From Asterionella formosa (lineage: Eukaryota), in NCBI GenBank assembly GCA_002256025.1, contig NKIB01013024.1:1-64000 (forward strand): a stretch of DNA of 64,000 bases, written 5' to 3'. The translations under genes were made by a program, and so were the position numbers. This document shows positions 28,891-63,836 of this stretch, in pieces. The notes beneath the pieces are model-generated. The model was not told where the DNA came from, made no database searches, and was given only the letters and a program-made list of their open reading frames with translations. The stretch's first letter is position 1. Each line of letters starts with the position of its first letter.

Positions 28891-30078
28891 ATGTTCACTA
28901 ACAGTCAATACATGACGTCTACGGACAAGGAAGATTGGAAATCCTTGTTCAATGATTTAGTTATTTATCCGTTTTCGTGCTTGGCTCCAACAAATGGTGA
29001 ATACTTGCAGTCTCCATCTACAGACCAAGAAGGTTGGAATGCCTCGTTCAAGGATTTGAATCTTTATCCATTCGCTTGCCTGGCTCCTACATTTCCTACT
29101 CCTCAACTAAACAATCCATGTCAGCCAATGAAAATAACGAAACTGCTAATGTCGTGGTTAAAATCTGCAAGGCGACAAGGACCCAGGAGTGAGAGGATGC
29201 CACTAGCACCATCAAGGAAGGATGAAACTGAGGCAGAAACGTCAACAGATGATGGATGTGGCACTTTGTTTCATGATTTACTGTCACCATTCAATTTTAT
29301 GGCTTCCAAAGCATCACCTCAGGTGAATGAACAAACACAGTATAGGTCGCAAGTGGTGTCCAAGCAATTTGATACTCCAGCAGTGTTGTCAGTGAATGAG
29401 GTTCCCGTGCCTCAACGGCCTCGTTTGAAGCAGATTTTGTTTAAAAGGCGCTTTTTTAGTTTTTCGTTGTCAAGAAGAAATTCGAAGGAGTCCATCCATC
29501 CAGAATCAGACCAGTCATTAAGAACTTGCTCTGTCAATGATAGGACAACACAGCTAGAATTGTCTGGAGAACCATCTAATCCAAATACGCAAGCAGTGCC
29601 CAGAGCAGCATCATACAACACCAGTCACATTAAAGTGAATTTCGATGTAGCAAGTACACATGAGAAGGCCAGCAATGAACCACAAGATCTTCTGATGGAG
29701 CAGAACTCAAACACCTTTGCAACTGATAATAAGACACAATCACAAGAGGCAGGCAATAACATCATTTATGGTTGTATGTCCCTAGGAGATATAGGCGACA
29801 ATGATGTACACAGTAAGGTACAGTTTCAATGCTGTCATCTGATGGATGATGACAAGGCAACAACAGGGAAACCAACAAACAATAGCAATGCCATCCTGCA
29901 ACATGAACCCATAATGTTGGATAGCAAGGAAGCCCAAGGCCTTGGATTGGATGGGCAGCAACTTCTTCAATTGCCATCCTCCCCATTCGGCATAACGAAA
30001 ACAAAATGCCAGCCCTATAACCGAGCAATTCAAAAACTTTTGTCATTTCGGAAAAAAAGAAGCTGGAAATCACTGTGA
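28891..30078 (+). CDS. Hypothetical disordered protein, family member 1 (395 aa; may lack an upstream exon)
   Basis: Uninterrupted ORF with three WxSLFxDLxxxPF-like motifs and a C-terminal PYNRAIQKLLSFRKKR shared with the other three members. Confidence 0.75.
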   Translation: MFTNSQYMTSTDKEDWKSLFNDLVIYPFSCLAPTNGEYLQSPSTDQEGWNASFKDLNLYPFACLAPTFPTPQLNNPCQPMKITKLLMSWLKSARRQGPRSERMPLAPSRKDETEAETSTDDGCGTLFHDLLSPFNFMASKASPQVNEQTQYRSQVVSKQFDTPAVLSVNEVPVPQRPRLKQILFKRRFFSFSLSRRNSKESIHPESDQSLRTCSVNDRTTQLELSGEPSNPNTQAVPRAASYNTSHIKVNFDVASTHEKASNEPQDLLMEQNSNTFATDNKTQSQEAGNNIIYGCMSLGDIGDNDVHSKVQFQCCHLMDDDKATTGKPTNNSNAILQHEPIMLDSKEAQGLGLDGQQLLQLPSSPFGITKTKCQPYNRAIQKLLSFRKKRSWKSL

Positions 30079-30533
30079 ACAATGAGGACATCTTGAAAAT
30101 TATATGGTCCATACATTTATCTCTTCCCTTTACACAATGATACTTCCAATGTGCTGCTGACAAGAATACATCCTACTTAATGAGGAATTCTAGATAGGAA
30201 GAAGTAGAACTGGCCATGACTATTTAAAACTTGTCTCATCATGTCGACAACATTGTCACTGTAATCTACGAGCACTAAAGAAGGTAGAGGTCTAGCTACT
30301 GAGCAAAACGAAATCATTGTTGCAGCCCAAAGTAAGCATAGAACAATAGGAAGGGTTTTCAGCAAATAGAATGTTTTAGAAGACTGAAACACATCCATTG
30401 CGTCCATGAAAGAAAAACAAGAAGTCAAAGGCAAAGTGACCTCTCACCATAATGGCCCCTGATTACAATTTAAACTTCTGAGCTTTTTAAGATCAAAAAC
30501 TGCAGAAGTATTTTTGTATTATTGCCAGTACTA

Positions 30534-31727: not shown

Positions 31728-31799
31728 TTATTTATTGACAATACAAAAGTAATACCTCCAAGCAAGCAAGTTATTTCCAATCCTTTACAATTATGAACG

Positions 31800-33620: not shown

Positions 33621-34668
33621 CTGAAAGGGCGGGGTTCGACTTCTTTCTAAAAAGTACTGTATACTTCATTGTCCTGAACCCCCCCCCCATGGTTGCTGGA
33701 CCCCCCTGTACATTAATTCTTGAGGTGTAACCAAACACCCAATGATTTTCAATGAAGCTTGTTGCCATCATTCTTTTGGTCCTCAGTGGCACTAGTATTT
33801 TAATATTAAGCTATCATGGTGCGATTCTTCATCATGATGTTGTTGCAACCTTGACCATGACGAAAATACAAATTATCTCCACGAAAAATTGAGAACGAAA
33901 CTTTGCTACTTGCTACCTGCATTCAGAATGACATGGAAAAAACAATGGTAAAAGAAGTAAAGTAATAACACTAATAATGACAGCAAAAATTGAGATTGCC
34001 AATAATATTGTGATAAATATAATCTCTGCAACATAGGTGCTAGGCAGTGGATCGAAAGAGTATGGTGAATTTAGGAGCCTGTGGGTAGATTCGACTCCAT
34101 TGGTATATCCACATAAAGTGAGCTTATAGAATTACTTTTAGCAAACCAAACCAATGAACTAACGTATGAGTAAAGAATGATTCATGTTCATGACTAGACT
34201 AAAAGGATCATGACTGAACTGATTTTGGAGATACAATTAAGATTCATTCGATTTGTCGGTTTCAACTGCCTGCCCCCCATTATTCTGTCATAAACATTTA
34301 CATGAATGGGTTAGATACTATGTTGTAGTGATTTAGCCACTTTGTATTTTGGGAGAAATAATATAACATTAGACATTTGAAGGAGGAAATGAATGCTTGG
34401 CTATGAAATACAAATGCTGTGAGAAAATTTCCCTTAAATAAATTAATCTTCTACTTAACTACGTAAAACTCTTTAACTTGCACAATCCAGAGCGAAGAAA
34501 TGGCATCAGTCAACCTTACTGTATTGAAACGTACTTACAACATCAAAAGTTTGGCATCGGAAAAAATTTGATGGTTTACAAACTGCGAATCACAGCCATG
34601 ACCTAATAGAGTAATACGACGATGCCCGATACATATGGGTTTTTTTGGTTTTCAAACATTTTTGCTGG

Positions 34669-37600
34669 TTAAAAAACATGGCTTTGCCTATCAGCAAACC
34701 CATCCCTCTTTCGGAATGACTTCAATGCCAGAAAAGCGCGGATATTTCGAGGCTCGCTCTTCTGAAGTCGGCAAGGGGTAGACTCAGACTGGGAGGAGGA
34801 TGTAGTTTCACTAGATTGTGACACAGAACCGACGTCATCTCCATTAATCCCTTTGTCGATGGGTTGATTTGGCATGGCATTGTCATTTCTTCTCGATGAT
34901 GGTCCAACTGCTGTGCACAAATCGTCAGCAAAGAAATTGACCATCTTGTCCACAGCACTGTGGCAGGGATTTAGGAAGAAGAGGTCCTCAATATCTTCGT
35001 TGCAATTGTATCTGAGACGACTGTCTCGATCTGGTGATGAGGAAATAGGAGGCTCTGGTGGTGTTGACATCACTACCATGTTGGAGATTGGAATAGGATT
35101 AGGATTGTCTAACCTCATCGAATTGCGCCTGAGAGACCTTCCAAAGAAGCCACGATTGGAGAGCCCATTCATGTTCGAAGTACTTCTCGCCATGCTCTTT
35201 GGCTGCTTCACAGCACTTGACATTGCGGCTTTCACAATCTTCTTTCGAAATGACTTGAACTCACGAAAGGTTCGGTTGCGAGGTTCACTCTTCTTTTTAC
35301 TTTCGAAAGCACCAATTGGGTACTCTGATCCTTTCTGTTCTGGCTCTTTGCCCGATGTCTTGGTGGCAATCACTGTTTGCGCAATGACCACCCACGGCAA
35401 ATTATCATTGCTGATGTTTCCTTGCTGCGATTGCTGATAGACAATTTCAACATCATTGGAGTCGCTTGGAGTTTCATTTTCAGCTGCTGGCTCAGGACTG
35501 GTTGCTTTTGCCGCTTCCGACGAACAAGCAGCTATTTGCTTCGCAATGGGAATATTGGCATTGCCCGGGGTAATGGCTTGCTGTTGATTTGAGATTCCGT
35601 TCGAGTTTACATTCGCATTTTGAACGCTGAGGACGTCCCTTTTCAGCGATTTTTGTTTCTGCGTAATATTAGCTGAACGCGAAGGTCTAAAATTCTTTCC
35701 TCCCTGTTTCGCCTTTGTCTTGAATAACATTCTCCGCACCTTTTGTGACCACGTACGTGGACGTTTCCGTTGTTTGATTGATCGACACTTCTTGACCTTT
35801 TGAGGAACCACAGGGTAAGAGCAATCGAATTGTGATGCCAGGTCAATTAGAACTGAATTAAACTCATTCCACATGTAACCTGAACTGGTTTTCGTGTTTG
35901 ATCGCAAAACCTTTGTCTTCCTCGTAGTATCGTCCACTTCAGTTACATCACAGAGTGAGGGAACAATGGACTGGAAAGGGTAGATAAGGTCACTGAACAA
36001 GGAATCCCAAGCTAACCGATCTTGGTCCCGCGACAAATAATGTGCTAAGCTTGGCCTTTCCTTGGGACTATTTCTCCACCACGACACTCCTTGCAATGAG
36101 GTTTTACTGGTGTCGAATGTCCCCGATGAAGCATCTGAGACGGATTCGTCAGATTGTAAAGTCTTTTCTACCCATGGCGATTTGGGGTTTACAACGGAGA
36201 TTTTGGAGGCTCGCGAATCTGCAATTACGAAACTTGTGTCACACCCGTCTAGTGCCATATCGTTGCGGCTATCATATTCAGCAGCATTCAATTTGCCCAT
36301 TACATTTTGCAAAGCCCCAATCACGTGTTCCCTTGAGACTCGCTTTCCCTGGTTGGTAGCTCTCTCAAGCTCACTCTGCATTTGTTGCAATGTGGCTTGC
36401 ACATCATTCACAACATCCCCGGCGAGTGAGTTTTGCTCTGTTTGTTCCATTCTCGACACAGTGCGATCCAAGGACGAGGATCGAATGTTCCCGAAAAAGT
36501 TCTTTTTCCTTGCAACTTTGGATGGAAGGCGTGAGAGAGACTGGCTTCGTGAAATTCCTTGTTGCAAGTGACTCATCGTAGACGAACAAGCAAGAGGCAA
36601 ATCTGATGATAACACATGTGCCTTTGAATGGAGTAGAGACGCATCAAAAGGTCCGCTTGTATTTGACATTCTCGTAGGTTTTGTTGGAATACCATCAACG
36701 CTGTTATTATTAGAAGTAGTCGTTGTCGTCAGCTCCGGATCCACTTCAGGGAGAGCGATAGTTTCACCTGTGGAAGCGATGCCGTCCATCTTGGTAGATG
36801 TCAAACGCTCGCCTTGCAAACCACTTCGTAACCATCGACGACGTCCAATCGAATTGGATCTTCGCCCTTTGGGGGTGCTACCCACGTCAAGCTCAGCTGA
36901 TGGATCTGTCCATGGCTCAGGTACCAAACTTGTCTCAACAATCATTGGTGACTCTGTGATCAAGATTTCCTCGGATACACTCGTAGGATGCACTACCCTT
37001 CCCAAACTAGTAGTACACTTAGCAGTGACAGCATGACTGTTTGTCAAAGGAAGTGAGGCCACGGTTCGGTTCTCAGCTTCAATTGAGGAATCTGATTTCG
37101 TACCAAAGCTTGTTTCGGCAATCATTGACGACTCTGTGACCATTCCCACTTTCTTACAATTTTCAGCAATGTTATCAGCATAACTGCCCTTTGAAGGTAG
37201 TGAAGCCATAACACGATACTCAGTGTCCATTGAGGAATCTGCATTGTTGCCAAAGCTTGTCTTGGCAAGAATTGATGACTCAGTGACCGAGATATCCTCT
37301 CTTACACTCGTGCATTGCATTACCCTTCCAACAATCTTGGCAATTTGAGCAGAACTGCTCGTCGAAGGACGTGATGCCACATTACCGGTACTATTCTCAG
37401 CTGTCTCGGAGGAATCTGAATTCTTCTTCAAGATTGACAGCATATCTGATTCCACGATAACTTCCTTCGTTGCAGTTGGAGTTTGCAGGAGTGAACGCGA
37501 AAGGTCGACATATTGCGTGTTCTTGTTGAACCAGCACCTTCGGCCAATCCTTAAGTTGGACCTTCCTTGTTCAGGCTCGTTTTCCATCTCATATTCAGTT

Positions 37601-37986
37601 GGTGGATCCGATGACAGCACAGATTCCAACCTTTCCTTGATTTCCAAGGATGACTTTGTCATAATGATATCGTCAGGGGCGAAAGTTGAAGGCACAACGG
37701 CAAGTCCCAAACTTATGTTCTTGGTAGTCTCAGCAGACGTTTTAGTGCAGATCATCGAGGGATCTGATGACACACTCCTGCTACCAGCTGCTGTCGAGGA
37801 CTCTGCATTCGTCCTCGCCAAAGATACCGGTGTGTCATAGGTATCCGAGCTGCCAAAATCCTTTTTCAAAAGTGGATACTCGTCGATACTAAATTTAGTC
37901 TGACACAACTTTTGATTGGCATTCCGACTAGGAGTAGGTGGATAGATCGTGCAGCAACGGGCTTGCTCATTTCGGAGGGACACCAT
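34669..37986 (-). CDS. Hypothetical Ser/Thr-rich disordered protein, family member 2 (1105 aa)
   Basis: 3.3-kb uninterrupted ORF; close paralogue of 48275..51718 with only frame-preserving indels. Confidence 0.92.
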   Translation of the reverse strand: MVSLRNEQARCCTIYPPTPSRNANQKLCQTKFSIDEYPLLKKDFGSSDTYDTPVSLARTNAESSTAAGSRSVSSDPSMICTKTSAETTKNISLGLAVVPSTFAPDDIIMTKSSLEIKERLESVLSSDPPTEYEMENEPEQGRSNLRIGRRCWFNKNTQYVDLSRSLLQTPTATKEVIVESDMLSILKKNSDSSETAENSTGNVASRPSTSSSAQIAKIVGRVMQCTSVREDISVTESSILAKTSFGNNADSSMDTEYRVMASLPSKGSYADNIAENCKKVGMVTESSMIAETSFGTKSDSSIEAENRTVASLPLTNSHAVTAKCTTSLGRVVHPTSVSEEILITESPMIVETSLVPEPWTDPSAELDVGSTPKGRRSNSIGRRRWLRSGLQGERLTSTKMDGIASTGETIALPEVDPELTTTTTSNNNSVDGIPTKPTRMSNTSGPFDASLLHSKAHVLSSDLPLACSSTMSHLQQGISRSQSLSRLPSKVARKKNFFGNIRSSSLDRTVSRMEQTEQNSLAGDVVNDVQATLQQMQSELERATNQGKRVSREHVIGALQNVMGKLNAAEYDSRNDMALDGCDTSFVIADSRASKISVVNPKSPWVEKTLQSDESVSDASSGTFDTSKTSLQGVSWWRNSPKERPSLAHYLSRDQDRLAWDSLFSDLIYPFQSIVPSLCDVTEVDDTTRKTKVLRSNTKTSSGYMWNEFNSVLIDLASQFDCSYPVVPQKVKKCRSIKQRKRPRTWSQKVRRMLFKTKAKQGGKNFRPSRSANITQKQKSLKRDVLSVQNANVNSNGISNQQQAITPGNANIPIAKQIAACSSEAAKATSPEPAAENETPSDSNDVEIVYQQSQQGNISNDNLPWVVIAQTVIATKTSGKEPEQKGSEYPIGAFESKKKSEPRNRTFREFKSFRKKIVKAAMSSAVKQPKSMARSTSNMNGLSNRGFFGRSLRRNSMRLDNPNPIPISNMVVMSTPPEPPISSSPDRDSRLRYNCNEDIEDLFFLNPCHSAVDKMVNFFADDLCTAVGPSSRRNDNAMPNQPIDKGINGDDVGSVSQSSETTSSSQSESTPCRLQKSEPRNIRAFLALKSFRKRDGFADRQSHVF

Positions 37987-39419
37987 TGCTCACCTTTCCT
38001 CAATGGAGCCGCCTGAAATGGTATCTTCTTTCAAAAAATTTGTGGAACAATTTCTGTTCGGCTTCAGTTCAAGTTTAGTTCCCGGCCGCCGATATATTTA
38101 AATGGTATGATGTTCAAAATGTTCTTAAATATAGCATATAAAATACTCACATGATAACTGTTTAAATAAATATTCTTTGTGATCTCTTTGAAAAACGGAT
38201 GCACATTGTTGATATGACATAAATTATATGCCGAGCCTGGATGTCGAGAGTGAGCATGATGCACATAGCTTCTGGACAAGGGTACCGGTATGTATCTTAG
38301 GTACCTGGTAGCTGGTACAAGGTCAGTACCAACATCGAAGCAAAATTTAGAATAGAAAATTTGCTGAAGTTATCGGGCGGTTAGCCAAAGACAAATGCTA
38401 CCGGTACCGGTTCTCGGAAACCCGGGTTAGAAATTTTTTCCCCACGTGGCTAGTGAAAATATGTTCTTCGTGTACCATTAGATAAAATCAGTCAAATTCA
38501 GTCACAGCAGTGTACATGGGTGAGGGGGTCCGTGACACTAAAGTTTAGGGTATGCGATAATTTTCATTGAATCAAAATACCGTCCTGCAATTCTGCACTG
38601 TATGAAATCGGCGAGGGACAGGCTTTGGCAGATTAGCACTGTGCCAAGATATCTCAAGCACATGAAAGAAGAAGGGTACCTGGTACCAAATCTATTTACT
38701 GTCAACCTGGACCTAACCAATGGGGCATAGATAGATAAACACGTCGTGTGTCGTGCCTGACGTGCTCGATCATTGATTTTGAACAGGATGAATTTTTGCA
38801 GAGCGCGAGAGGAGGGGCGATGCATTAGTTATGTTTTGAAATACCGGTACCCTTGAACCATACCTGGTACACAACGCCGACATACCTTATACCGCATAAT
38901 GGTTGTCCTGGCCCCTGTAAATTTTTTTCGAGGTGGAACCAACAACCAATGATTTTTTAGACATACCGGTAGACACAGTCACGTGCTACGGTATGCTATG
39001 ATTCCATTGGTCCTCGTAGACACTTTTAAATAATTATTTAGCTATGATGTTTCGTTTCCTTCGTGTGCTGTGTGCATCCCGAAACTACTGGTACCGGTAG
39101 GTAGTCACCGTTGTTAACCAGGAAAGTCCGGTAATCAGCACAAAAAGCTTGCAGGTTGCTAGATTTTTGGTAATCGATTCACATGCGAGAAAAGGCGGGG
39201 GTAAACCAACCCCCAAAAATTGTCGAACCCCTAAATTTTGGGCCACTCCGTTCTTCCTTTAAATGATGGTAAGCCAAGTCCGCAGTAAATAGTTAGCAAG
39301 TTGAAGTCAGCATTTTTACTATTGTATATACAGGGTAGCAAAATGAAGAAGTAGATAGCAATGACTATTTTAATCGGCATTTGCCGCCTAGACTAGTCAT
39401 TCACTCCTATACCATTGTT

Positions 39420-43829: not shown

Positions 43830-44395
43830 ACTCAAATTATATCATTCTGTTACAGGATTTCTATTGTCGCCTTTCGAAGAGCGTTCCAAACAAGTCATAC
43901 GATATTTGGGTTCATTGTCTTGGTATGACAAATGTTTATTTCCAGATTGGAATGATCATTGGTGATACAGAAGAACACAATAAAATTTGTGGCTTCAGGG
44001 GTGGTTATGGATTATATCGACGATATGTTTGTCGTGATTGCCTGGTTTCAACTGAAGATGCTGATAATCCTGATATTGGATGTGAACGTCATAAAGTGTC
44101 AGATGATAATAAGTTTTTAAACAAATTTCTTGACAAAAATGCATATCCCGATGGAAAATTGCCATGTATCCCACCTGAGTATTGTGTCTCCCAATCTAAT
44201 GGCAAATACGCAGCGCACAGGAAACGAGTGGTGCCGTGTTATATCGCATAATCCTATTATGCCTGCACTAATAAATCTTTTTTTAGTGGTGATTTGAGGT
44301 TCTTCAACAATTACTGCTTGGAATATTCAAGTTCGCACATTTTGGAATCTTTGTACAATTATCGGACTATCCCTGAAGATTGGACATGTTTTTTT
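43830..44395 (+). pseudogene. Second Plavaka-like transposase fragment
   Basis: VYFQIGMIIGDTEEHNKICGFRGG...CRDC is homologous to 18928-19167. Confidence 0.75.
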
Positions 44396-44409
44396 ATAGA
44401 AAGAAAATC

Positions 44410-45620: not shown

Positions 45621-45626
45621 GAAGAG

Positions 45627-47460: not shown

Positions 47461-47484
47461 CCATGATGGCTCTACTGTGCATGC

Positions 47485-47985: not shown

Positions 47986-47992
47986 GCGGGAA

Positions 47993-48158: not shown

Positions 48159-48274
48159 CCGGGAACAAAAAATTGAGCTGAAGCCGAACTGTCATCTTTT
48201 CACAACCTTTTAAAGTCCGCATTTTCTTTTTGCATGAAAATACAAGTTTCAAGCGGAGGATCTTTTGAGGAGCA

Positions 48275-51718: not shown

Positions 51719-52723
51719 CCAGCAATAATGTTTGAAAACCAAAAAAACCATTTGTATTGGGCATCATGGCATTTTTATATAAGGTCATGGCTGTGATTCG
51801 CAGTTTGTAAACCGTCAAATTTTTTGCTGATGCAAAATTTTTGATGTTGTAATTACTTTTTGATACAGTTTGGATGACCGATGCCATTTCTTTGCTCTGG
51901 CTGTATTGTGAGAAGTTGAAGACATTATGCAGTTTTATTCACTTGCCAAGTTTTTCACATAGAATTTTCACAAATTTACATGAACTGGATTAATTTAAAA
52001 ATGCATTTTTCTCGCAGCAGTTGTACTTCATAGTCAAACATGCATTCAGGAAAGTATCTAATTATCAGTTGTTTTGGTGTAACCATGACTTCTTCATCCT
52101 GGTTTGAACTGGCTTACAGTAGTATCTTCCTTCAAAGAGCTAATGTCATATCATTTCTACTGTGTTATATTTTTTAACTTGAAATTTGATGTTAGTTTCA
52201 ATCTTGCCAAATTACTTGGTCTCAAAAATCTTACTTTCTTGGACTTGTTCTTCACCTCAATCCACTCTTTCTTATTGGTCGATTTTGAAAAATTCTTAAT
52301 TCCAATCATTTCAGTCTTAGAAGTTTTCTTGCATGTTGGACTCCATCTGTAGAAATGCTATTTCATTTACAAATCCCACTGTTATTTTCCTGAACTGACC
52401 TTCTTGTTCTTGTTCCATGGAATTCTTCATGACTATTGGTCATGCAGAATGTGCAGTCATTGCAAATTAGTTGTACTAGTGGTGAGATGATAACAGTAAT
52501 TGTTTATCCTCAACATCCACCCTCCAACATTCAAGATTCTCATTACTTATCCTTGCTGGCTGCTTTATGGTGTGCAACTTCTCTGGACAGTTTTTGTTCA
52601 GTGTGCCAGCTGAGTTCTCTTCCAATCATACAAACTGTATCATCAAATATCCTTGATCTTCAAGTGCTCAGATGAAATGTGCCCTAACACCAATATGTTT
52701 TGTCTGTGCACCCACATGTTGGT

Positions 52724-52956
52724 CCTTATTTTTTTCAATTAAATTTTATAGTACATCAAAGCTATCCAATAATTGCACTCAGGCCCCCACAAATAAATGG
52801 ACACACTTAGTACCAGTTTTATTTTTCCATAAGGTACAACAGGAGCTGTCAGCGGCACCCCTGGAACCATAGGGACTGCATGAAAAAGACAGGTGGAGAA
52901 TGCAGGAGTCAAACCCGCCACTGCAGAAGGTTGTGCTAACCACAAAACCATTCCCC
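52724..52956 (-). mobile_element. SINE family 1 copy
   Basis: Reverse complement reads GGGGAATGGTTTTGTGG...GGTTTGACTCCTGCATTCTCCA; flanked by CACATGTTGG (52713 and 52958). Confidence 0.85.
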
Positions 52957-53147
52957 TCACATGTTGGGGTTCTTTACCAAATAGATAGCTCCTAAATTGT
53001 CTTGTCTTCATTTACACACCCAACCAATTTCTCCTTGTTTGGATATTAGATCAATTCTTCAAGTAGCATGGATATGAACTTGTTCTCACAGCCATGCTCC
53101 TTTTGCCAAAATGATATACTCCGCTTCTGTGCTTAAGATTTTAACTA

Positions 53148-53383
53148 CAAAAAATGTCAATATAATTTTATAGTACATTAAAGCTATCCAATAATTGCAC
53201 TTGGGCCCAAATAAATGGACACAATTATTACCAGTTTTATCCTTCTGTATGGTACAATGGGACCTGCCTTTTCGTCAGCCTCACACCCCGGAACCCTAGG
53301 AACTACATAAAAAAGACAGGTGGACAATGCAAAAATTGAACCCGCCACTGCAGAAGGGTGTGGTAACCAGTAAGCTATTCCCC
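53148..53383 (-). mobile_element. SINE family 1 copy
   Basis: Reverse complement reads GGGGAATAGCTTACTGG...GGTTCAATT; degenerate TSD TGCTTAA.A.T.T.ACTA (53130 and 53388). Confidence 0.85.
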
Positions 53384-54982
53384 TGGCTGCTTAACAATAT
53401 GACTAGGCACTACATGTTGTGTCTGTGACTCCCAGTTCACCAATGTACCACTGATTATATGTTGACCAGATGAAATGCTCTTCCTGTCATAAATATTCTG
53501 TGTTTAGTCTGAGTCTACAAATGATATAGGCCTCAGATCCTTTGGGCTCCAATAGGTCAACCATCATATTATCTTGCTTTAATGTGTCCAAGATGTCTTT
53601 CAAGAGTTTTACAGTGCTCCTTGCCTGGGTTTGACAGATGTTGCGCCAACACTTGTGCAAGGTTTGCCAGATCTGGTGCCAACTTTATCATCAGATGATA
53701 CATTACCCTCACAACCATAGAACAATATTCCATCATTTTTACTGGTTCTCTTTGATTCTTCCTGAGGAACTTGTTTGGATACTAGTATCCTGGTGTCTCT
53801 GCTGACTCCTTATCATTCTTCCCAATAATATTTTCGAATGATTCAACAATTTCAACCTCCAACTTTGTCATACCAGCCACAATATAGATTTCACCATTTT
53901 TATTCAAGTTTTGCTTTCATACCATATGCCAAGATGCTTCTTCAATCTTCCCAAATCCGAAATATTAAACCTCTTCTGCAATTCCAACTTGAACTTTCAA
54001 TTGTTGAATTCTTTCCAAAGAGTAAAACATCATCAACATGTACCACAGCAATCAGAATAACTTCATCCACTTTACTTTCCCAGTAATATAAACATGGATC
54101 CACCAAGCTCTCTTTGTCATTTTTGTTTCCTTTGTTAAGTGTTTGCTCAGTTTCTTTGTGAAAAGTCTTGGGGCATGATTGATTCCACCATACATGGCAA
54201 CTCTTGTCAGCTTTGTGCAAAACTTCTTCTGTTCTTCTTCTGTGATAAATCCAAGTTCCACTGCACCTTCCGGCCATTCTGGATTCAAGGTTCTGTGTTT
54301 AAGAATGCTGCCTCCCTTCTTCATTCTAGTGATATAAAGTTGCAGAAATTGCTGCTGTCCTGACTGTTGTGTCTGTCATTGCAACTGGCAAAAAAGATTC
54401 AGTGTAGTCCACTTTGGTGTTGTACAGACAAGGAGATGGTGGATTACACCAATAGATTGTCAAACCTGTCATTGGTGTGTTGCAATCATTATTGTTTTGC
54501 AGGTATCAATGTATGTGTGTTGTTTGTTGTCCTTTTTCAATTTCTTCTTTTCGCCCTTTCAGAGAGCGAGGCTGTGGTTCTAGTAATAACAAACTGTAAA
54601 GGCAGATCAGCAGGGCATGAAGAATGGTGGAAGAGTGGCTGGGGCAAACAGTGAAGAGACATGAAGTTTGATAATGTGTAAAATTATATGTAAAAGCGCA
54701 CAGGATGTTTTTTTGGCATACATGGTTGAATCAATATATATAGTGTATTGTTCTCTTGTGACTTCTTTCTGAAATCGTCTGAAGTTCTTGACTGACACAG
54801 CTGACGCATTGATATATAACTACCGGTATGAATAAATGAATGAGCAATGTGTCTCTATACCGGCGAGAATTGCATAGCGTACAAGAAGGAGGTGGCAACC
54901 AAACAGCAAAGCAAGCCTTGACGACAATATCAGGTCAAAAGATGATCATGACGCCGGAGCCTCGTTGCCCAGAGAATACAAC

Positions 54983-56266
54983 ATGGAAAATCATCATATC
55001 GAAATGCCACAACAGGAAGGTGCTTCCAATTCCACTTCAGGTTTGAATCCTCCTATTGATGCATCGGTTGAAAGCGTCTTGGACATACAAGGTATACCGG
55101 TAGTGAGAGCGCAGTTGCTTGTCGTCGAAGGAACGACAGCGAAGGAACGCTCAAAATATCCAGTGATTTGGATAACACTATTCGTCCTTGTTCTTGCCGG
55201 AGTGATTGCAGGAACTCTGGCCCCCTTACTAAAAAGATGTTGCGATAGCACAAACGCACCATCACACACTCCGACATTAGCCCCGTCCAAAGATCCTCCT
55301 TACCCAGGGAACCTTAACTGGACAATCGGGCAACAAATTTCTTTGATAGCTCCTGGAGATTACCATGTTCTGGGTATTATTCCAGATCCAGAGCTTTTCA
55401 TCGAAATAACGAATCGAACCAATGTCAATTTCACAGTTTTTACATTTGCAACAGGCAAGATTGATAATGTTGACATTTCCATCATCACTAAATTCGTGAC
55501 GACCCTCTGGAACGGCCACTCAGTAAGTAATAGAAAGGAAAGCGAAATAATTAATTATCCCTTGCTTGCCACCATCCTCCCTCACTCTCCTTTTGTACAA
55601 ACAACAAAGCTCGACTTTTTGCTAAGTTTCACAATTGAAGGCATTGTCTTGTCCGCTGATGACCTCTATGATGGCCTCGTTCTGACTTCAATGGCTCGAT
55701 ATCCACTAGAATTCAACCTTAATCCAACTCGAGTTAATGATGTTACAATTGTCGAAAGCACTCAATACTATCGGAATGGAGTCATGATATTCATCTCTGG
55801 ATTCCCTACCCCCTATATACCTTGGGTTGAGAAATCCCTTTATGATATTCTGATTGAAGCCAATATTCGACGAGGTGGTGATCTCTCCACCTTCATTTCA
55901 ATCGTGAATAATACAGTTGATTTTAAAAAGGAGTTGCAGGCACATGGAACTGGAGCAACAACTCTATTCGCTCCTACCAATGAGAATTTATCCACATCCA
56001 TGGGTAACCTCACCATCTTTCTTAACAATCACATTGCTGTTGGTAACGTTGCAACACGAGCTTGGAAGACAATCCCCACTGGTATTATTTTGAATGACAC
56101 GCACTTGAGTTTGGAAACGTTTGGTGGAACTACTTTAGTGCTGGCCATGACGCAACCGAATATCACCATCAATGGCGATGCAACAATCATTGAATCTGAC
56201 CTATTCTCCGAATTTGGAATAGTGCATATTATTGACAAGCCGATTATAAGTGCCGCTCAAAAATGA
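54983..56266 (+). CDS. Fasciclin (FAS1) domain protein with N-terminal membrane anchor
   Basis: TM segment VIWITLFVLVLAGVIAGTLAPLL, a Pro/Thr linker, and FAS1 motifs TTLFAPTN and GIVHIIDKPI; first ATG at 54983. Confidence 0.85.
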   Translation: MENHHIEMPQQEGASNSTSGLNPPIDASVESVLDIQGIPVVRAQLLVVEGTTAKERSKYPVIWITLFVLVLAGVIAGTLAPLLKRCCDSTNAPSHTPTLAPSKDPPYPGNLNWTIGQQISLIAPGDYHVLGIIPDPELFIEITNRTNVNFTVFTFATGKIDNVDISIITKFVTTLWNGHSVSNRKESEIINYPLLATILPHSPFVQTTKLDFLLSFTIEGIVLSADDLYDGLVLTSMARYPLEFNLNPTRVNDVTIVESTQYYRNGVMIFISGFPTPYIPWVEKSLYDILIEANIRRGGDLSTFISIVNNTVDFKKELQAHGTGATTLFAPTNENLSTSMGNLTIFLNNHIAVGNVATRAWKTIPTGIILNDTHLSLETFGGTTLVLAMTQPNITINGDATIIESDLFSEFGIVHIIDKPIISAAQK

Positions 56267-56328
56267 AACAATGTTTATCCGTTATGCACAACGAAGCACC
56301 GACTGTGATCTATAAAGCACTATTAAAA

Positions 56329-57240
56329 TTAATTGGCTGGTGGGTGCTTATAGTAAAATGTTTTTTTCTTCATCAATTCACCATTCAAAAAATCCTTGGG
56401 GGCTTCATAATCTTCCATTGAAAATCCCGCCCTAATCCCCAGCGGCTTCCCATTCTTAATCCACGCCGCTACCATTCCCGTTCTCACTGTCCAAGGTCCA
56501 GGTCCATCCTTTGCGGATTCAACAATGTATTGAAAGGGTTGGTCGGTTCTGACTTTTCCACCAGCACATTCACAAATTTGATGTTTTATTTTTTGGCAGA
56601 GAACAGGTGTTGACGGCACATGGTGCCTCACGGTAATGACAGGAAGCCCTGTCTCCTCCCGTATACTCCTTGCTTTTTCTGTCAAAAGTTCTTCTCGGTA
56701 CTTGGCATGCGTATGCTTTCCCCATGGCACTTGCCATCGAATGCCATGTGCCTAGCGGGTGGCATGGATCCCGTACCGTTTGACTTGTTCGGGGGTATTG
56801 GACAATTTGTGTTTCAATACTGGTAGTTGTGTTACTACATTGATACCAGAATTGAACATTCCAGAACAAAGCCTAAGTTGCATTCAATGACAGGTATGGT
56901 GGGTCGGAAGTGGGCACAAGTGTCCAATCCGTAAATGGCGTGTTGTTGTGTCTCCAATGTGGTCCTATATTTTGTGCCCAGGTGGGCAAATTCTGTCATG
57001 GACAGAGTTATTCCAGCATCTTTGAATATCGTTACAAAGTGTGTTTTTTGTCACTGTCATTTAATTTGATTGGTGGGACAAGAGGGAATGGTACAAGTGG
57101 CGATTTTCTTGAACGGCGTTAAGAAATAAACGTTTCCAGCCAGCATGGATAATATTCCCACAAAGGAAACTGAACCTAGAATGAAGTTGCCAGATAGTTT
57201 ACAAATTGGCTCCTCACCGGCCTGAGTTGTTCCGTAAGCT
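56329..57240 (-). pseudogene. Sulfotransferase-like diatom family pseudogene
   Basis: GMFNSGINVVTQL...*AHGIRWQVPWGKHTHAKYR...LPVITVR, with in-frame stops and frameshifts. Confidence 0.5.
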
Positions 57241-57539
57241 GGGAATTGCTATTGGGGTCTAAGCTACTGAAAGTAGACTGCCGGTTTTATACAGAATGAT
57301 GGATTTTGGTGATGTAACCATGATTTCATGTATTTTAAGTATATGGAACCTGTAACAACTCAATGATTAATAATACTCCATTTGTACCGGTATGTTATTA
57401 CCATGATTATTTTTATCTGAATTTTGTATTTGCTTTACATGCATGTATGATGTATCTAAATTACAAGAACCACCTGGTACTGGTATCAGGTGCTGTGTAT
57501 AGTGTGGCATAAATACAGGTACCGGTATCATGCATTACC

Positions 57540-58300
57540 ATTACATAGCCCTTCAGGACAATCCTGCTCTTGAGCCTTTGAGAAACCAGGTTTTTCTGCT
57601 ACCACTGTGGACATTATTTGTTCTTTTTCTGGGTAGCTTTTGCTCATGCACAGCTGTCACACACCAACATCTTTCCAAATGGTATGATGTCATTTGCATG
57701 CAGCATTTTTTCCACTCTTTTTTCAGTTGCATGCCCAAATTTTGTGTGTGCCTCATTAATGTCCATTACTTATCTCTCTTGTTTCTTTCTCATTTCATCA
57801 TGATTTTTCATTTCTTCAATATTGTAGACCTCTTTTGCTCCAACAACACACTGTGCAATCAGATAAGTCATACCATTGATTCCTGTCTTAAACTCATGAT
57901 ACCACCAGACTCATTAAATATCTTGGATCCTTCTTTTCCAGCCACAAAGCAACTCGTTTCCTCTCTCTGTCAACCTGCCAACACATATCAAATTTAGAGC
58001 AAAACCAGGAACAACCAGCACTTTTTCCAATTTCAGTGTTTTCCTTCTTGTATCCTTCTGCTCCAGAGTCAAATCACCAATCACTGTTGCCTTAAGGGTT
58101 TCATTGTTTCCAACCCTCACATGCTCACCTTCAGTTGCAGTCTACAAATTACTCTTTTTTGATGGACACATGGGTTGTTACCCCTGAGTCAACAAACCAG
58201 CTTTCATGTCCACTCTCTGTGACAGGGCTCATGGTTTTTCGAGAATTTTTCGCCAAAACTTCCTCATCATCCCACATCCATTCTGCTCCATGGCTTGTTA
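57540..58300 (-). pseudogene. Copia protease/pre-integrase relic
   Basis: SWFVDSGVTTH and VRVGNNETLKATVIGDLTL...LEKVLVVPGFALNLICVGRL. Confidence 0.75.
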
Positions 58301-58329
58301 GATCCATCTGCTAAATAAATTTTTTCTCA

Positions 58330-58845
58330 TCAACAATTCTGTTCACATTTTTGTTGACAGGCATTACCCAATTACAATGGAATGTCAAGTGAAGGTGATG
58401 CCTCAACTTTTTGCCATATGACATCAGTGCACTGCCCCTACACCAATGAATTGAGGGTCTTGATGTTTTCATTGAGATAATTGATCCGCTTAACATATTC
58501 ATCTACTTGATTCTACCAGAGGCGCTCCTGGGTCCTGGTTCTTGCTCTGGATGGTGGGTCTGATGATGGCTCATTGATTTTGAGTAGCTCGAGGTTCTCC
58601 ACAGCAAGCTTGATGTCTGTACCATATTTGCATGTCCTTCCAACATATTCAGCGACTTTCTTGGTGGTCTTCACAAACAGATCTGACTGTCAGGCGTCTG
58701 AGCAGTCATAAATGTGGTCCTTGATGTCATCACATTTTCCTTCGAACTTTGTGTGTCTTGGCACCGTGTCTTTTGGTTTGGATTTACAGACCGGAAGGGT
58801 GGCTTCCCGCAGCCTTGTCTTTCCTTCTTCTGAGTTGCAGTGACG
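58330..58845 (-). pseudogene. CoDi-like copia gag N-terminal fragment
   Basis: KFEGKCDDIKDHIYDCSDA*QSDLFVKTTKKVAEYVGRTCKYG...VDEYVKR...ENIKTLNSLV*GQCTD. Confidence 0.7.
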
Positions 58846-58849
58846 CTAG

Positions 58850-59880
58850 CTAGTGCCGCTAGCTAATGCCGCCATCATTGGCAGCTGTGTCACCGGACAA
58901 AATGATCGCTCTACGTCCTTGCGTTGGGCATCTTGAACCATTGAAAAATGTGCACGCTTTTCACCCTGTGGTTCCGGAATTGTTTTGACAAAAATGTGCC
59001 AATCTGGATAGATGCCATCAACCAAATAGTAAGCTAGATTGTGCTCTTTGTTGTTGATTGTGAAACTGACAGCAGGAGTCCTTCCAGCTGTCAAATCCCG
59101 GAAAAACGGAGAACAATCCAAAATATTGAGATCATTGTTAGCACCTGGCATTCCAAACCATGATGCCTGCCAGAACCAAAGTCTACAACCAACATCAGCT
59201 TCCAAAGCAACAGTAGCCCCTCCATCTTTTCCTCGAAATGTTCCTCTGCAAGACTTGGGACAATTCTTCTATTCCCAATGCATCACTTTCAGTGAACCAA
59301 GAAGTCCTGGCCAAACCCTTTGCTTCATGGAAAAGTACAACCATTTCCATGTCATCCTTTGTAGGAGCTCGCAAACATTCTGTTCCATACCTGCTGATTT
59401 TTGAGTTACAAAACACTTTTGATTTGGGAGTTTAGTCGATTCAGATCTTGTGAGGTTATTCAGATGATTCGCCAAAGTTCCGTAAGCCAACATTCGAGGC
59501 GCTGAGGTTAACTTTTGATGTGGCGAAAAACCAACCAGACCCAAGGCATCTTTCTTCTGTTCAAATTATGGATTTGCCTCGACGAAATCTTCAAGAATCT
59601 TTTCAAATAAGGAGCGATGCATCCGGAAGCACCTCCTGAAATGTGCAGAAGAGTAGATTGGATTCTTGCTGCAATAGCTACTAGTTGTCCTTCAACAGCT
59701 TGTTGTTGTACTCTGCATGAAAGCGATTCATGTTAGTAGCCTTACCAACCTTGGAACCTCCTCCCCTATTTTGTCTTTTCTTTGCATCGTTCTCACCTCT
59801 TTGCTGACAATGCATCTTGTGGAAATGGTAGAGGTGATCATCATCAGATGAGTCGCTATCATTGCTCCTTGTTTCATTCT
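58850..59880 (-). pseudogene. PIF/Harbinger transposase pseudogene
   Basis: FRRCFRMHRSLF, RMLAYG, PGLLGSL..MHW, FGMPGANNDLNIL, YYLVDGIYP and QRKDVERSF. Confidence 0.9.
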
Positions 59881-60225
59881 GTGTTTATATAGCTATGTAG
59901 TATGTACCGCTATATCATCGATACACATATAAAGACAAAATAGCACTATTTCTATTTGCTAAAATTATGTGTGCAAAATTTGTCTTTTATAGGATTTGGT
60001 CAATGTGGTGGAAAAAAATGAATAATTTGACTATTGATAAAAAAAATTCTCGACTGGTGAGTGATGTGTTTTGATATTTTCAACTGCATTTGGCTTCGGT
60101 ATTTGGTCAATGCAGATGCTCTTATTATTCAGTAGTACATATGTAATACTGCATGCACTTACAATGGAATTTTTTGTACAGGAAATTCGACAACTAAATA
60201 TTGCCTCACAAGAAAGATTCTGATT

Positions 60226-60339
60226 CACATGATGATGTTTTGGCACTACCAGTAAGTGTTCTGATTCCGATATAATGGAGACACATGATGATGTTTTGGC
60301 ACTACCAGTAAGTGGTTCTGATTCCAATATAATGGAGAC
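60226..60339. repeat. 56/57-bp tandem duplication
   Basis: CACATGATGATGTTTTGGCACTACCAGTAAGTG... occurs twice. Confidence 0.95.
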
Positions 60340-60454
60340 TGTAGTAGAGAAGGCCGATTTTGTCGAATTTTTGGACAATGATAGCTCAACGTTGGCTGCG
60401 TCTGAATGCGATTTAGATAAATAGGTAACCTTCAAATAGCATCAGCATACTGGG

Positions 60455-60700
60455 CCGGTATAACTTCTGGCGAGAAACTGCAGAAAGGAACTTCGGTTTT
60501 TTACAATGATGCCAAATAAAGTGATTTCCCCCGAAATTTCTAGTCTTAACAGCATGGTGAAAAAAATGAAGTTCCTTTCTTCAGTTTCTCGCCAGATCCT
60601 GTATCCTGACGATATTTAGTGTTGACCAATTTACACCTGCTACTTTTGATCAATGACTGTGTCTAAGCATACGGAAAGGGTTTGTAGTGGTGAAAGCTCC
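60455..60700. repeat. Second copy of the internal-IR repeat (see 15420)
   Basis: 29-bp inverted repeat at 60466-60494 and 60568-60596 with one mismatch. Confidence 0.75.
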
Positions 60701-61382
60701 GTTTAGCGATATACATTTATGTTTTACTCTTAAGAAGTGTTGGTTTGAGTACTCTGACTCAATATTATCTTTTGAACCCTACCTCTAAACTAGGGTTGAA
60801 ATGCAGGAACCTTAACTCGGAGCACAATACATTACGACGTGGCTCCCGGTCGTTTGCAGTTTGTTTACATAGACAGCACAGGAGTGACGTCATGGAAGCG
60901 TTGAGTACATTACTATGTTGATGCGTTGAGTCAGCTCGACAACCCCAGCGGACAACCCCAGCGTCGAAAATGACAAGAAATTCAAGCGTTGAGAACCCTT
61001 TTTAGCATACAAATAAACAATAGACGAAGTTGTTTGAGCTCTGAACCACATAGTAGGGAAGTCTGATGGCATGAATGGTTATCATACCGGTAGTCGTGAC
61101 TAAGTAGGAGTCTCCCACAGATATGCGTTTCACCATTGAAATACATCCTGCCACTTGGTCGGCATCCTCACGGAGCCTGTCCGATTTGGGATTTCTAATT
61201 CTTTTTGTTTGACATTTCAATAGGTCGGCGGCTACTACGACGAATGATCACACTTTGATCCTTTCAGCGTAAGGCGTGTCGCCTGCCAAACTTTTTCTTA
61301 CACATGAATATATTCCTTATAGTCAGCATGACATATGAGCATTCACCACAATTTGGAACAATTGAGGAGCGTAAAATAGCAA

Positions 61383-63836
61383 ATGGGGTACAGCCAACCT
61401 AAGATGTTTCGTCGTCCCTCTTCGTCGTCGTCTTACGAATGGTCACGTCGGAATGCCACGAAAGGGACAATAGTAGGTCGAGGAGCGGCGCAGCCACTTC
61501 TGAATAACGAGGAATCGTCCTCTTCGCCAGACGAAATGACTATTCCCGAGAATCGAGCACCAACGGGATATGACGAAAGGTCGAACTCAAGAGGAGGCAA
61601 GCTGTTCGATACAAGCACAAGAGATAAGCCCAAGCCTTACTGTCCTGAATCGGAAACAACTGCCGAAAACAGTTCGCGCCCACGAATCTTTCAACGCAAG
61701 TCAAATTCGCACTGGTCAACTGCAACTGCACCTAGCACCAGGACTATTGGATGGCGCCGATCGAATACCGGGGGAAAAGTTCAGGTATCACCTATGCCGG
61801 GCTCCCTCACCGACATTTCATTGACTGGTGTGACAGGGACCCTGCGGCAGATGGAGAAGGACCTTAGTCGAGCGCGCAAGATGGGGGAGTCAGTGTCAAG
61901 AGAGGCTATCATGGTGTCCTTGCTCGGTGTGGTGAACAATCTAAATTCTGAATTGGATGACAAGATATGGGTGCCTAGGGATGCTTCAACATTGTCCACT
62001 TATGTTGAGACAGAGGTCGGTACGACGAAAATCACAGTTATTAGTTATCTAAAGTCAGATGACTTGAACTTGCACGAAGAAGGTAGATCGCTATCATTTA
62101 CAAACGTGGATACAGACTATAATTATGAAAGTGACTCGCAATTGTCAGACATTAGCGTTTCAACGAACGGCGAGGACGTCCAGGCCGTCCAGGCCGCAAC
62201 AAGCAAAGATTGTTCGCTTCCAGGAGACACTTTTATCTTCAATAAAATGGTGCAAGCTTGCCTTTGCATGAATCCATCATATCGTCCCAATGCAAGAGGC
62301 AAAATGCCAAGTCCGAACGTCACGACAAGGAAACCATTGCTTCTTCCACCATCGAGTTCCAAAACGACTCTATTCGAAGATGAAAAGACGCGAGCAACAT
62401 CGCAGCCAACAGCGAGGAATATGCCACTACGAATTAATCGCATTCTAGGCTTGCCTTCCCCAAGTCGAACTTCCAAGAAATTGAACAGCCCTTCCAAAAT
62501 GCCAAAATTCTTCAAAAAGTCGATTAAGGACCCCGCTCCAGTTGCCGAAAACGAGGAAACGGGTTGCTTTGCATTAGATAGCGACGAATCAATTCAATTT
62601 CAAGAGGCACTTGCAGATATTTTATTTGCTGATTTAGTCCCAGCGTCTGTGGGGAGTACGGTTGCCCTTGAGCATTCGGCAATTGATGATTCCTTGATGC
62701 TCTGCTTTGCCCCTTTCGATGCTGCCTCGAAGGAACCATCCAATAGCAATGATGATCCATCTGCTCCTAATAAGTTGAATAAGTTGAGAAGTAAAACCAT
62801 GGAATGGGACGAAGATCAGAAGCAATGCAATGGTTCCGACAGCTCGCAACTTGATCAAAAATTCAAACCCAATAACAGAGCTTTTCGAAGCTTTGGGTCC
62901 TTTGGGTCCTTTCGAAGAAGAAAGGAAGTTCCGTCACCCCAAAGTATCCCACCAGAAAAGGTATTGAATGATACGGAGTCTACCGATCAAGATCCCGTTC
63001 CAGTCGTGACGACGAAATACATGCCGCCAAACGACGATGCTTGGAATTCCCTGTTTAATGACCTAGTTTTTGCCTTCATTTGCATGGCTCCCGCATTTCC
63101 TCCTACAAAGGCCAAGACTTTTCAACCGAAGAAAAGACGTGCTCGCCAATCCAGGATATCCAAATTTCTCGCCTTACCACGAATGCGCGGTTCAAAAAAG
63201 AGTGCACCATCGTCAAAGCCTCCCGCTAAGAATAGGGGCTTGCTGAACAAACGAAGCGGTTTCACCAACTCATCTCAAAAGTGCAATCCAAATCAGTCGC
63301 CGAATCCGAGTAAGTCGCAAGCGTCAGTGGTTCCTCCTTCTAAGCAGGCAGCTGATCCTATCAATGCGACAATGGAAAAGTCAGCACCAGTTGCAACAAA
63401 TTGGTTTGCATTAGATGACATGGAATCTAACCAATTGCTAGAGGTAGTTGACGATATCTTCTTGATTGACGTATTTTTGCCGGCTTCGGAGAAGGTAGAC
63501 GGGATGGAAAATGATACTTTCGGCTTGCTTCCTTTCACAGCTTTTGACAACTATCATACAAGTGCAAAAGAGACGACGACGGAGCCTTCAAGGAATCCAG
63601 GGGACGGTCTCATCATGCACAACTTAGAGAGCAGTGCATACGATATGCGGAAGGACGAAGGAAGCCCCACATGCGATGGCTCTGAACTATCACCACCACC
63701 AACTCACAAGTCACTTTCCAAGGGCAGCTCAGCTGACAAAGCGAGTAAAAAGAGGCTCGAGCCTCGTAACCGAGCCTTTCTAGCGCTTAAGTCATTTGGA
63801 AGGAAGCAGAGGGAGGAGGAGCTGGAAAGTGTCTAG
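61383..63836 (+). CDS. Hypothetical disordered protein, family member 4 (817 aa)
   Basis: Uninterrupted ORF; shares TLxQMxxxLxRAxxxGxxVSRE, WNSLFNDLVFAF, LRSKTxxW and PRNRAFLALKSF with members 2 and 3. Confidence 0.9.
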   Translation: MGYSQPKMFRRPSSSSSYEWSRRNATKGTIVGRGAAQPLLNNEESSSSPDEMTIPENRAPTGYDERSNSRGGKLFDTSTRDKPKPYCPESETTAENSSRPRIFQRKSNSHWSTATAPSTRTIGWRRSNTGGKVQVSPMPGSLTDISLTGVTGTLRQMEKDLSRARKMGESVSREAIMVSLLGVVNNLNSELDDKIWVPRDASTLSTYVETEVGTTKITVISYLKSDDLNLHEEGRSLSFTNVDTDYNYESDSQLSDISVSTNGEDVQAVQAATSKDCSLPGDTFIFNKMVQACLCMNPSYRPNARGKMPSPNVTTRKPLLLPPSSSKTTLFEDEKTRATSQPTARNMPLRINRILGLPSPSRTSKKLNSPSKMPKFFKKSIKDPAPVAENEETGCFALDSDESIQFQEALADILFADLVPASVGSTVALEHSAIDDSLMLCFAPFDAASKEPSNSNDDPSAPNKLNKLRSKTMEWDEDQKQCNGSDSSQLDQKFKPNNRAFRSFGSFGSFRRRKEVPSPQSIPPEKVLNDTESTDQDPVPVVTTKYMPPNDDAWNSLFNDLVFAFICMAPAFPPTKAKTFQPKKRRARQSRISKFLALPRMRGSKKSAPSSKPPAKNRGLLNKRSGFTNSSQKCNPNQSPNPSKSQASVVPPSKQAADPINATMEKSAPVATNWFALDDMESNQLLEVVDDIFLIDVFLPASEKVDGMENDTFGLLPFTAFDNYHTSAKETTTEPSRNPGDGLIMHNLESSAYDMRKDEGSPTCDGSELSPPPTHKSLSKGSSADKASKKRLEPRNRAFLALKSFGRKQREEELESV

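Follow-up and report, generated by a model that had tools for sequence, protein, structure and literature searches.

The effector domain of MARCKS is a basic cluster that is released from acidic membranes or from calmodulin by Ser phosphorylation, and the core of Atg8-interacting motifs (LC3-interacting region/Atg8-interacting motif, LIR/AIM) reads [W/F/Y]xx[L/I/V] after acidic residues. Disordered scaffolds with cassettes of short linear motifs are long disordered chains whose short peptides are conserved in fixed order between relatives that are otherwise unalignable; one described cassette is that of BubR1 (PMC5204127). Here, we analyzed four genes in a stretch of 64,000 nucleotides (nt) from Asterionella formosa (contig NKIB01013024.1 of assembly GCA_002256025.1, positions 1 to 64,000; hereafter the window), whose products, members 1 to 4, had been flagged by an earlier reading of the DNA as a clustered four-gene family of disordered proteins built from shuffled short motifs (the original prediction). 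The four genes very probably belong to a small family that is restricted to a few related freshwater algae and matches no described family.

The family and its relatives

The four open reading frames (ORFs), of 395, 1105, 1147 and 817 amino acids, are intact under the standard code and lie exactly where the original prediction placed them. In three of the four, an ATG is the first codon, or nearly so, behind an in-frame stop, and the frames (395–1147 codons) are open in DNA of roughly 42% G+C. A tblastn search of the window with the four proteins returned these four genes and no further family copies. That the four genes are related holds; however, members 2 and 3 are recent inverted duplicates of each other, and the resemblance of member 1 to member 4 covers just the C-terminal half of the latter, so that a plain four-gene family describes them incompletely.

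As judged by alignments and a motif map, the proteins follow a single order of motifs: an N-terminal basic motif (MKA.RRSLSPFRRR.N), then RSSS(L/F)(D/E)R; the c domain (consensus SL(T/A)D..V.D....L..M......A...GKRVSR..V.GAL..VV..L), followed by a K(I/V)TV strand (KITV); an acidic Ser-rich stretch; motif a (strict form W.SLF.DL..) or a degenerate form of it; motif e (SWF.L.......L..A.ADIFL); motif d (LRSKTxxW); S.SPDR; and motif b (P(R/N)NRAFxxLKSFRK), a 14-residue peptide with about nine near-invariant positions. The distant relatives P0009, P0011 and P0022–P0025 have this common order, which is closed by KIVID in the outside group. In the window members one e-to-b module is duplicated and motif a stands at a different place: the order is c, KITV, e, d, b, a, e, b in member 4, and c, KITV, a, a', (d), b, SPDR, e', b in members 2 and 3, where the second b is preceded by a degenerate e-like motif (e'). 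The motifs are thus not freely shuffled, as had been proposed, but collinear with one duplicated module. In member 4 the duplication comprises two copies of FALD..ES.Q..E...DI, as claimed originally, and is also visible as a 63-nt DNA repeat (62564–62626 versus 63401–63463, 73% identical).

Searches with regular expressions recovered the remaining motif assignments of the original prediction. Motif a is present in one to three copies per member, with one strict copy each in members 2, 3 and 4 and looser copies in member 1, the third of which was read by eye. Motif b (P.NRAF..LKSFRK) is C-terminal in all four members and also internal in members 2, 3 and 4; c is found in members 2, 3 and 4, and LRSKTxxW in members 3 and 4, its position in member 2 falling in a 31-codon gap relative to member 3. 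The motif patterns, which were derived from the very family sequences tested, match shuffled family sequences 0–0.26 times per 11-protein set (200 shuffles).

Similarity between distant members is concentrated in these motifs. Member 4 is a distant paralogue of member 3, with significant BLASTP similarity confined to the d–b region (E 3e-9), c (1e-6), the tail from a to b (1e-5) and a (0.003). In its alignment with P0022, identity is 50% across the 50 residues of motif c and 26% across a further 198, and motif b is nearly identical; motif c of member 4 is also 50% identical over 50 residues to that of P0023. Proteins that share 50% of residues in motif c are only about 24% identical overall. 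Conservation of the motifs above the linkers therefore holds for distant members, where significant similarity lies mainly in motif regions, with a few weak longer collinear alignments. A mitochondrial presequence was considered for the basic N-terminus and dropped: five distant members all share nine of its first 16 residues, and such invariance is better explained by a binding motif than by a targeting peptide.

Outside the window, about 30 relatives in eight clusters were found among about 15 billion proteins, a count that includes cluster members and excludes three clusters of frame-shifted fragments. An exhaustive phmmer search with member 3 against 1.84 billion representatives gave seven hits at E up to 0.001, namely a variant of member 2, member 4, the fragments P0007, P0008 and P0010, and the true outside relatives P0009 and P0011; so few hits agree with the lineage restriction proposed earlier. 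Profile searches add P0022 (a “hypothetical protein” in its source), P0023, P0024 and P0025, and word-index profile searches return only the group of P0011 and P0022–P0025. A metagenome scan (alignment A3) contributed one related locus of 1.6 kb, L001, without usable context.

None of the comparisons with characterized families gave a match. The four window proteins and six relatives have no Pfam hit at the curated cut-off; the best, HEPN_STY4199 on P0025, reaches 19.1 bits against a cut-off of 25, and all others are below cut-off with E of at least 0.027. NCBIfam returned no match, a profile search of the Protein Data Bank (PDB) sequences nothing (best E 0.57), and a Foldseek search of the PDB with a model of the c domain nothing better than E 0.8, while VIA-align retrieved generic hairpins only (best Z 7.4). 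In the ESM Atlas, P0022 as a whole and its residues 140–285 gave best scores of 0.83 and 0.79 to unrelated disordered fungal clusters, below lead level. Topical and motif-string literature searches yielded no publication on the family or its motif strings among the matches listed.

The absence of membrane segments and signal peptides also stands: by hydropathy the proteins have neither a membrane segment nor a signal-like N-terminus, the highest 19-residue Kyte–Doolittle mean being 1.43. Disorder-promoting residues account for 65–72% of the sequence and Ser for 11–15%, with 4–12 R..S sites per protein (five proteins), and the net charge is positive in most members. AlphaFold2 predicts member 4 (13-row alignment) to be mostly disordered, in line with the original description, with a mean predicted local distance difference test score (pLDDT) of 35.6 and 733 of 817 residues below 50. 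The sole confident part of the model, residues 144–195 (pLDDT 65–77), consists of two helices joined by a GESVSR turn. When the c domain was folded alone, the helices reached pLDDT 77–88 and the following β-hairpin was near 50; motif c is consequently predicted to form an α-hairpin (helix–turn–helix) and is not a linear motif, as had been assumed. Elsewhere in member 4, helices are weakly predicted at motif e (pLDDT 55), motif a (47) and the C-terminal motif b (about 54). A two-copy prediction of residues 125–230 gave a score of 0.01 with the chain's own fold uncertain, and provides no evidence either way on self-association. A full-length member has (i) an N-terminus that is variable and disordered, with many Ser and basic residues, (ii) one small module predicted to fold, in which a helix–turn–helix of roughly 50 residues (c) precedes a short KITV strand region, and (iii) a long disordered tail of conserved peptides, which comprise a and e as acidic-hydrophobic helices, d with its W, the S.SPDR site and the very well conserved basic b.

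Member 1 (28891–30078, forward strand; 395 residues) has no c domain, and nothing similar to c lies upstream of the gene. It carries three a-type copies near its N-terminus, a cluster of Ser with basic and aromatic residues, and motif b at the C-terminus. Its first two a copies (28936–29070; residues 16–27 and 49–60) were found by regular expression and match motif a of member 4 by BLASTP (E 4e-5 and 6e-5), and the third, loose copy lies at about residue 124. The Ser cluster, FKRRFFSFSLSRRNSK, spans residues 183–200, and the C-terminal motif b, PYNRAIQKLLSFRKK, lies at 30013–30060 (regular expression). Member 1 matches only motif a and, weakly, residues 551–814 of member 4 (E 0.009), the likeness spanning residues 544–814 only, and its residues 33–84 are 79% identical to the C-terminal end of P0009, a protein that has the N-terminal half of the architecture (N-terminal motif, c, KITV, a) and ends there. 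From its likeness to the tail of member 4 and to the end of P0009, member 1 appears to be an incomplete copy that corresponds to the rear half of a family gene. No exact match to its sequence is present in the protein collection searched.

Member 2 (34669–37986, reverse strand; 1105 residues) is the inverted recent paralogue of member 3. On the same strand it has its c domain at 36262–36429 (residues 520–575; regular expression and alignment), motif a (residues 660–671) and the degenerate a' (residues 709–720), followed by a basic stretch, at 35827–36009, an internal motif b at 35236–35283 (residues 902–917) and the C-terminal motif b at 34705–34752 (residues 1079–1094), the last three identified by regular expression. 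Member 3 (48275–51718, forward strand; 1147 residues) has the same residue positions for c (49832–49999, residues 520–575; regular expression and BLASTP) and for a and a' (50252–50434, residues 660–671 and 709–720; regular expression), which are followed by a basic stretch containing KQRKRPR. Motif d (residues 912–919) and the internal motif b (residues 947–962) occupy 51008–51160, the region that matches member 4 at E 3e-9; the e-like acidic motif EDIEDFFLN lies at 51392–51424 (residues 1040–1050; regular expression and alignment) and the C-terminal motif b at 51635–51682 (residues 1121–1136; regular expression). Upstream of c, the N-terminal extension of member 3 contains tandem repeats at 48839–49247, in three DNA copies with a protein repeat of about 40 residues.

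Member 4 (61383–63836, forward strand; 817 residues) begins its recognizable order with the c domain at 61803–62051, which comprises the predicted helix–turn–helix (residues 144–195) and a low-confidence β-hairpin with KITV (residues 204–223). The first copy of motif e (62565–62636, residues 395–418) is a predicted helix; motif d (residues 468–475) and the internal motif b (residues 496–512), found by regular expression and BLASTP, share 62784–62918. Motif a (63042–63077, residues 554–565) is followed by PKKRRAR, the second motif e lies at 63402–63473 (residues 674–697), and the C-terminal motif b, again a predicted helix, at 63762–63809 (residues 794–809). Eleven variants of member 4 are known from the searches, all of them intact (814–817 residues); they vary at 35 of 817 columns and include one in-frame deletion of three codons (SFG).

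Transcription and the paralogous pair

Members 3 and 4 are made as intronless messenger RNAs, and these two genes are accordingly not untranscribed, which would have spoken against the family. Thirteen RNA-labelled runs from ten studies, mostly metatranscriptomes of lakes and other freshwater, contain part of 54001–64000, and the RNA contigs of four runs (X1, X2, X5 and X6) were aligned to 44001–64000, which covers genes 3 and 4. Single contigs of 3071 nt (X1), 3011 nt (X2) and 3008 nt (X5) cover gene 4 without a joint from 61019–61025 to the end of the window; the X1 contig, from a poly(A) library, has 0 differences from the window. Gene 3 is covered over 48215–51458 by a 3253-nt contig in X5 with 76 differences, and in pieces in X1 (0 differences), X2 and X6, again with no intron-like joint, which places its transcription in four runs from three studies. 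Both genes are thus represented on unspliced contigs of 3.0–3.3 kb.

A neighboring gene served as a control for the origin of these contigs. This Fasciclin (FAS1) gene (54983–56266, forward strand; PF02469, E 1.3e-15) encodes a protein with a hydrophobic stretch near its N-terminus, and its 427-residue ORF reads through an in-frame 87-nt GT..AG intron (55523–55609). The intron is removed in X1, X2 and X5, three of the four runs, and splicing of this gene in the same runs indicates that the contigs derive from RNA. In the poly(A) libraries, cover is near zero in bins 52005–54672 and in most of 57341–60675. Cover of the intergenic and repeat parts of 44001–48000 is uneven and stems partly from the repeats of other organisms; it was not used.

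Protein identity between members 2 and 3 is 79%, and their DNA is about 91% identical. The inverted duplicate comprises 34487–37991 and 51900–48270, with weaker similarity for about 120 nt upstream of the ATG, and ends about 180 nt beyond the stop. The N-terminal extension of both carries about three copies of a unit of roughly 40–60 residues (consensus VTESS.IA..S.G......S...EN...ASLP); in member 3 the local self-alignment score of the extension is 93, compared with a mean of 27 (standard deviation 4.9, maximum 51) for shuffled sequences. Rates of synonymous (dS 0.093) and replacement (dN 0.087) substitution by the Nei–Gojobori method are nearly equal (ω = dN/dS = 0.93), and all 10 insertions or deletions (indels) between the two genes are in frame. 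In a neutral simulation of 5000 trials, the frame stayed open in 0.44% with 137 substitutions and in none with 274. Both 1100-codon frames have remained open despite about 274 substitutions (simulated chance 0.0044 per lineage), which argues that selection keeps them open in spite of the near-equal dN and dS.

Two variants of member 2 outside the window, P0006 (1105 residues) and P0026 (1110 residues), lie on contigs of 3.4–3.8 kb and are mosaic. In alignment columns 301–500 both are nearer to member 3 (90–97%) than to member 2 (77–89%), whereas at the C-terminus P0006 is 98% member-3-like and P0026 100% member-2-like. This is the pattern expected of gene conversion or recombination between the two paralogues, which would also explain why dS between genes 2 and 3 is uneven along the gene (0.014 to 0.229). 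As judged from the sequences, the inverted duplication behind members 2 and 3 is recent, and the two copies still exchange segments.

A possible adaptor role and its alternatives

We propose, tentatively, that the proteins are cytosolic multivalent adaptors regulated by phosphorylation, a mechanism that we consider possible but doubtful. The predicted hairpin would dock on itself or on a partner, folded partners would bind at the conserved peptides, each of which would serve as one docking site, and kinases would toggle these contacts through basic-x-x-Ser sites, including the invariant Ser within motif b and the one in the GKRVSR turn. The frequency of basic-x-x-Ser sites suggests control by basic-preferring kinases, and the position-by-position conservation of motif b at about 24% overall identity points to a specific partner rather than to lipid binding by charge only. 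Taken as a whole, family identity together with the adaptor mechanism is the best explanation we can offer, and we give it an even chance of being right.

Several observations weigh against an adaptor family under selection. The case for the mechanism is drawn from amino-acid composition and motif conservation. Expression is supported for genes 3 and 4 out of the four, by RNA contigs that give neither strand nor expression level. For members 2 and 3, the motif-bearing windows show no drop in dN/dS, dN and dS both falling there, and the ω of 0.93 for this pair is also compatible with loss of constraint. In one minority X1 contig, 82 nt are replaced by 21 nt at 51411–51494, which breaks the frame of gene 3; its depth is 81, compared with 249 for all X1 contigs at position 51405. 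Finally, three of the seven phmmer hits are frame-broken sequences similar to genes 2 and 3 from other assemblies. These sequences, P0007, P0008 and P0010, match 37986–37431, 51173–51656 and 49961–50109, respectively, with frame switches partway. They are explained either by broken alleles that occur in natural populations or by errors of assembly between the two paralogues.

If members 1–3 were young duplicates drifting to pseudogenes, with only member 4 and the outside relatives functional, the ω of members 2 and 3, the frame-broken copies and the variant X1 contig would all be expected, as would a member 1 that lacks the c domain and whose exact sequence is missing from the protein collection. 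The frames themselves argue otherwise, since two of 1100 codons have survived about 274 substitutions at the simulated odds given above, the paralogue indels are in frame (10 of 10), and intact variants of 1105 and 1110 residues exist elsewhere. In addition, gene 3 is transcribed in four runs from three studies, and the indel variants listed for its RNA contigs are 3, 6 and 3 nt long (at least three such variants). We consider decay an unlikely account of members 1–3.

An electrostatic switch, which is close to the original suggestion that motif b resembles calmodulin-, membrane- or microtubule-binding basic helices, would assign a different role to the same peptides: the Ser clusters with basic and aromatic residues, namely motif b, RRSLSPFRRRR at the N-terminus and FKRRFFSFSLSRRNSK in member 1, would bind acidic membranes or calmodulin and be freed by Ser phosphorylation. 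The peptides are indeed basic, aromatic and Ser-rich, most members carry a net positive charge, and motif b is helical at low confidence (pLDDT about 54). However, the helical hydrophobic moments of five b copies, which are positively charged, are unremarkable and inconsistent (0.18, 0.20, 0.31, 0.32 and 0.54). Lipid binding usually conserves composition only, and about nine near-invariant positions in 14 residues suit a specific protein partner better. Moreover, no MARCKS match was obtained with Pfam, and member 4 starts MGYSQPK, where the Pro at position 6 disfavors modification according to the myristoylation rule. Such a switch is, in our judgment, an improbable explanation of the family.

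A bolder version of the adaptor proposal would make the family a new kind of algal signaling scaffold. Here, an oligomer formed through the hairpin would display peptides of two kinds in alternation, acidic-hydrophobic ones (a, e) and basic Ser-Phe ones (b and the N-terminal motif), whose binding to each other or to common partners would yield a condensate or cortical assembly controlled by phosphorylation. Within populations, this assembly would be tuned by rapid turnover of paralogues and by gene conversion. We regard this as speculative and distinctly improbable.

Nuclear regulators would use a and e as activation domains and KQRKRPR and PKKRRAR as nuclear localization signals. In favor of this assignment, basic heptads with at least five Lys or Arg residues lie directly behind motif a in members 2, 3 and 4, and a and e are predicted acidic-hydrophobic helices. 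On the other hand, P0011 and P0022 have no such heptad, and the Pfam scans gave no DNA-binding domain; a nuclear role is quite unlikely. Finally, that the ORFs are cargo or products of transposable elements spread by the surrounding repeats is very improbable: the genes are intronless and lie in a repeat-rich stretch, with a Harbinger transposase fragment 2 kb upstream of gene 4 and a hairpin element with 72-nt arms upstream of gene 3, but no terminal inverted or long direct repeats flank the gene regions examined (1, 3 and 4), the family proteins have no transposase, reverse transcriptase or integrase domain in Pfam, the gene 2/3 duplicate lacks element-like ends, and there are only four copies in the window and few sequences in public collections.

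The surroundings of the genes agree in part with the claim that they survive among dead transposable elements. There is one PIF/Harbinger-type transposase fragment (58849–59268, reverse strand; PF04827 Plant_tran, E 1.2e-40, profile positions 39–162 of 205) and there are several interspersed repeats, but only one of 63 scanned ORFs has a transposition domain. The repeats at 4183–5337, 40338–41704 and 46453–47457, together with 7932–8945 versus 45503–44474, show 85–89% identity and no protein-domain hit, and two repeat copies sit between the inverted paralogues 2 and 3. An inverted repeat at 47993–48158, with 72-nt arms that are 90% complementary and 22 nt apart, lies 120–280 nt upstream of member 3 and resembles a short element able to form a hairpin; position 47994 is a break point of several RNA contigs. 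The nonamer TTGAGGAGC, which contains an in-frame TGA, has just two exact matches on both strands of the window, at 48265–48273 directly 5' of the member 3 ATG and at 61362–61370, 13 nt 5' of the member 4 ATG (both forward strand), with an interrupted version at member 2, and may be a shared element of the 5' untranslated region. Farther away, an ORF with LRR and PT repeats (12816–14258, reverse strand; LRR_1 E 2.1e-21, PT E 1.4e-12) has internally repetitive DNA at 13610–14168 and 12983–13394, and a 154-residue ORF (25280–25744, reverse strand) matches DUF7769 weakly and below threshold (E 9.3e-5, 22.5 bits against a cut-off of 27).

Comparison with described systems

The family is real and undescribed, yet algal genomes, in which a large share of genes has no annotation, commonly contain such orphan families. 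It opens no long-standing question and no function is indicated so far. The cluster nevertheless provides a clean, expressed orphan family with defined peptides and one foldable module that is amenable to experiment. It also illustrates how replacement changes can accumulate almost as fast as silent ones under a strictly kept reading frame, and how paralogues swap segments in natural populations.

For the predicted hairpin, the structures that align with the c model over 55–63 residues are the ESCRT-I core (2caz/2f66/2p22), the BRS domain of BRAF (5vr3) and the N-domain of the Siah-interacting protein (1ysm). Their Z scores (5.7–6.6) are under the level the tool considers meaningful for helical models, and identities are 2–12%. 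The resemblance is that of a common arrangement and, as far as the model goes, provides no evidence of kinship.

Among the peptides, motif a was compared by eye with the LIR/AIM core. WKSL, WDSL, WNSL and WNAL fit this core, which is too degenerate for such matches to count, whereas WNAS, from the second copy in member 1, does not. A reading of motif d as a “W-acidic” motif for kinesin light chain, considered for MEWDED in member 4, was dropped, as it is not borne out by the three remaining copies. Peptides in which Lys/Arg, Phe and Ser are clustered, among them LKSFRKK and FKRRFFSFSLSRRNSK, resemble the MARCKS effector domain in make-up only; unlike MARCKS proteins, the family has neither a Pfam MARCKS match nor a likely myristoylation signal, and its motif b is conserved position by position.

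A parallel in overall design exists with the disordered scaffolds that carry cassettes of short linear motifs. Like these, the algal proteins are predicted to form long chains that are mostly disordered; only their short peptides are conserved, in fixed order, between relatives that otherwise cannot be aligned. There is no sequence relation between the two, and the family described here differs further in that it also has a small hairpin that is predicted to fold.

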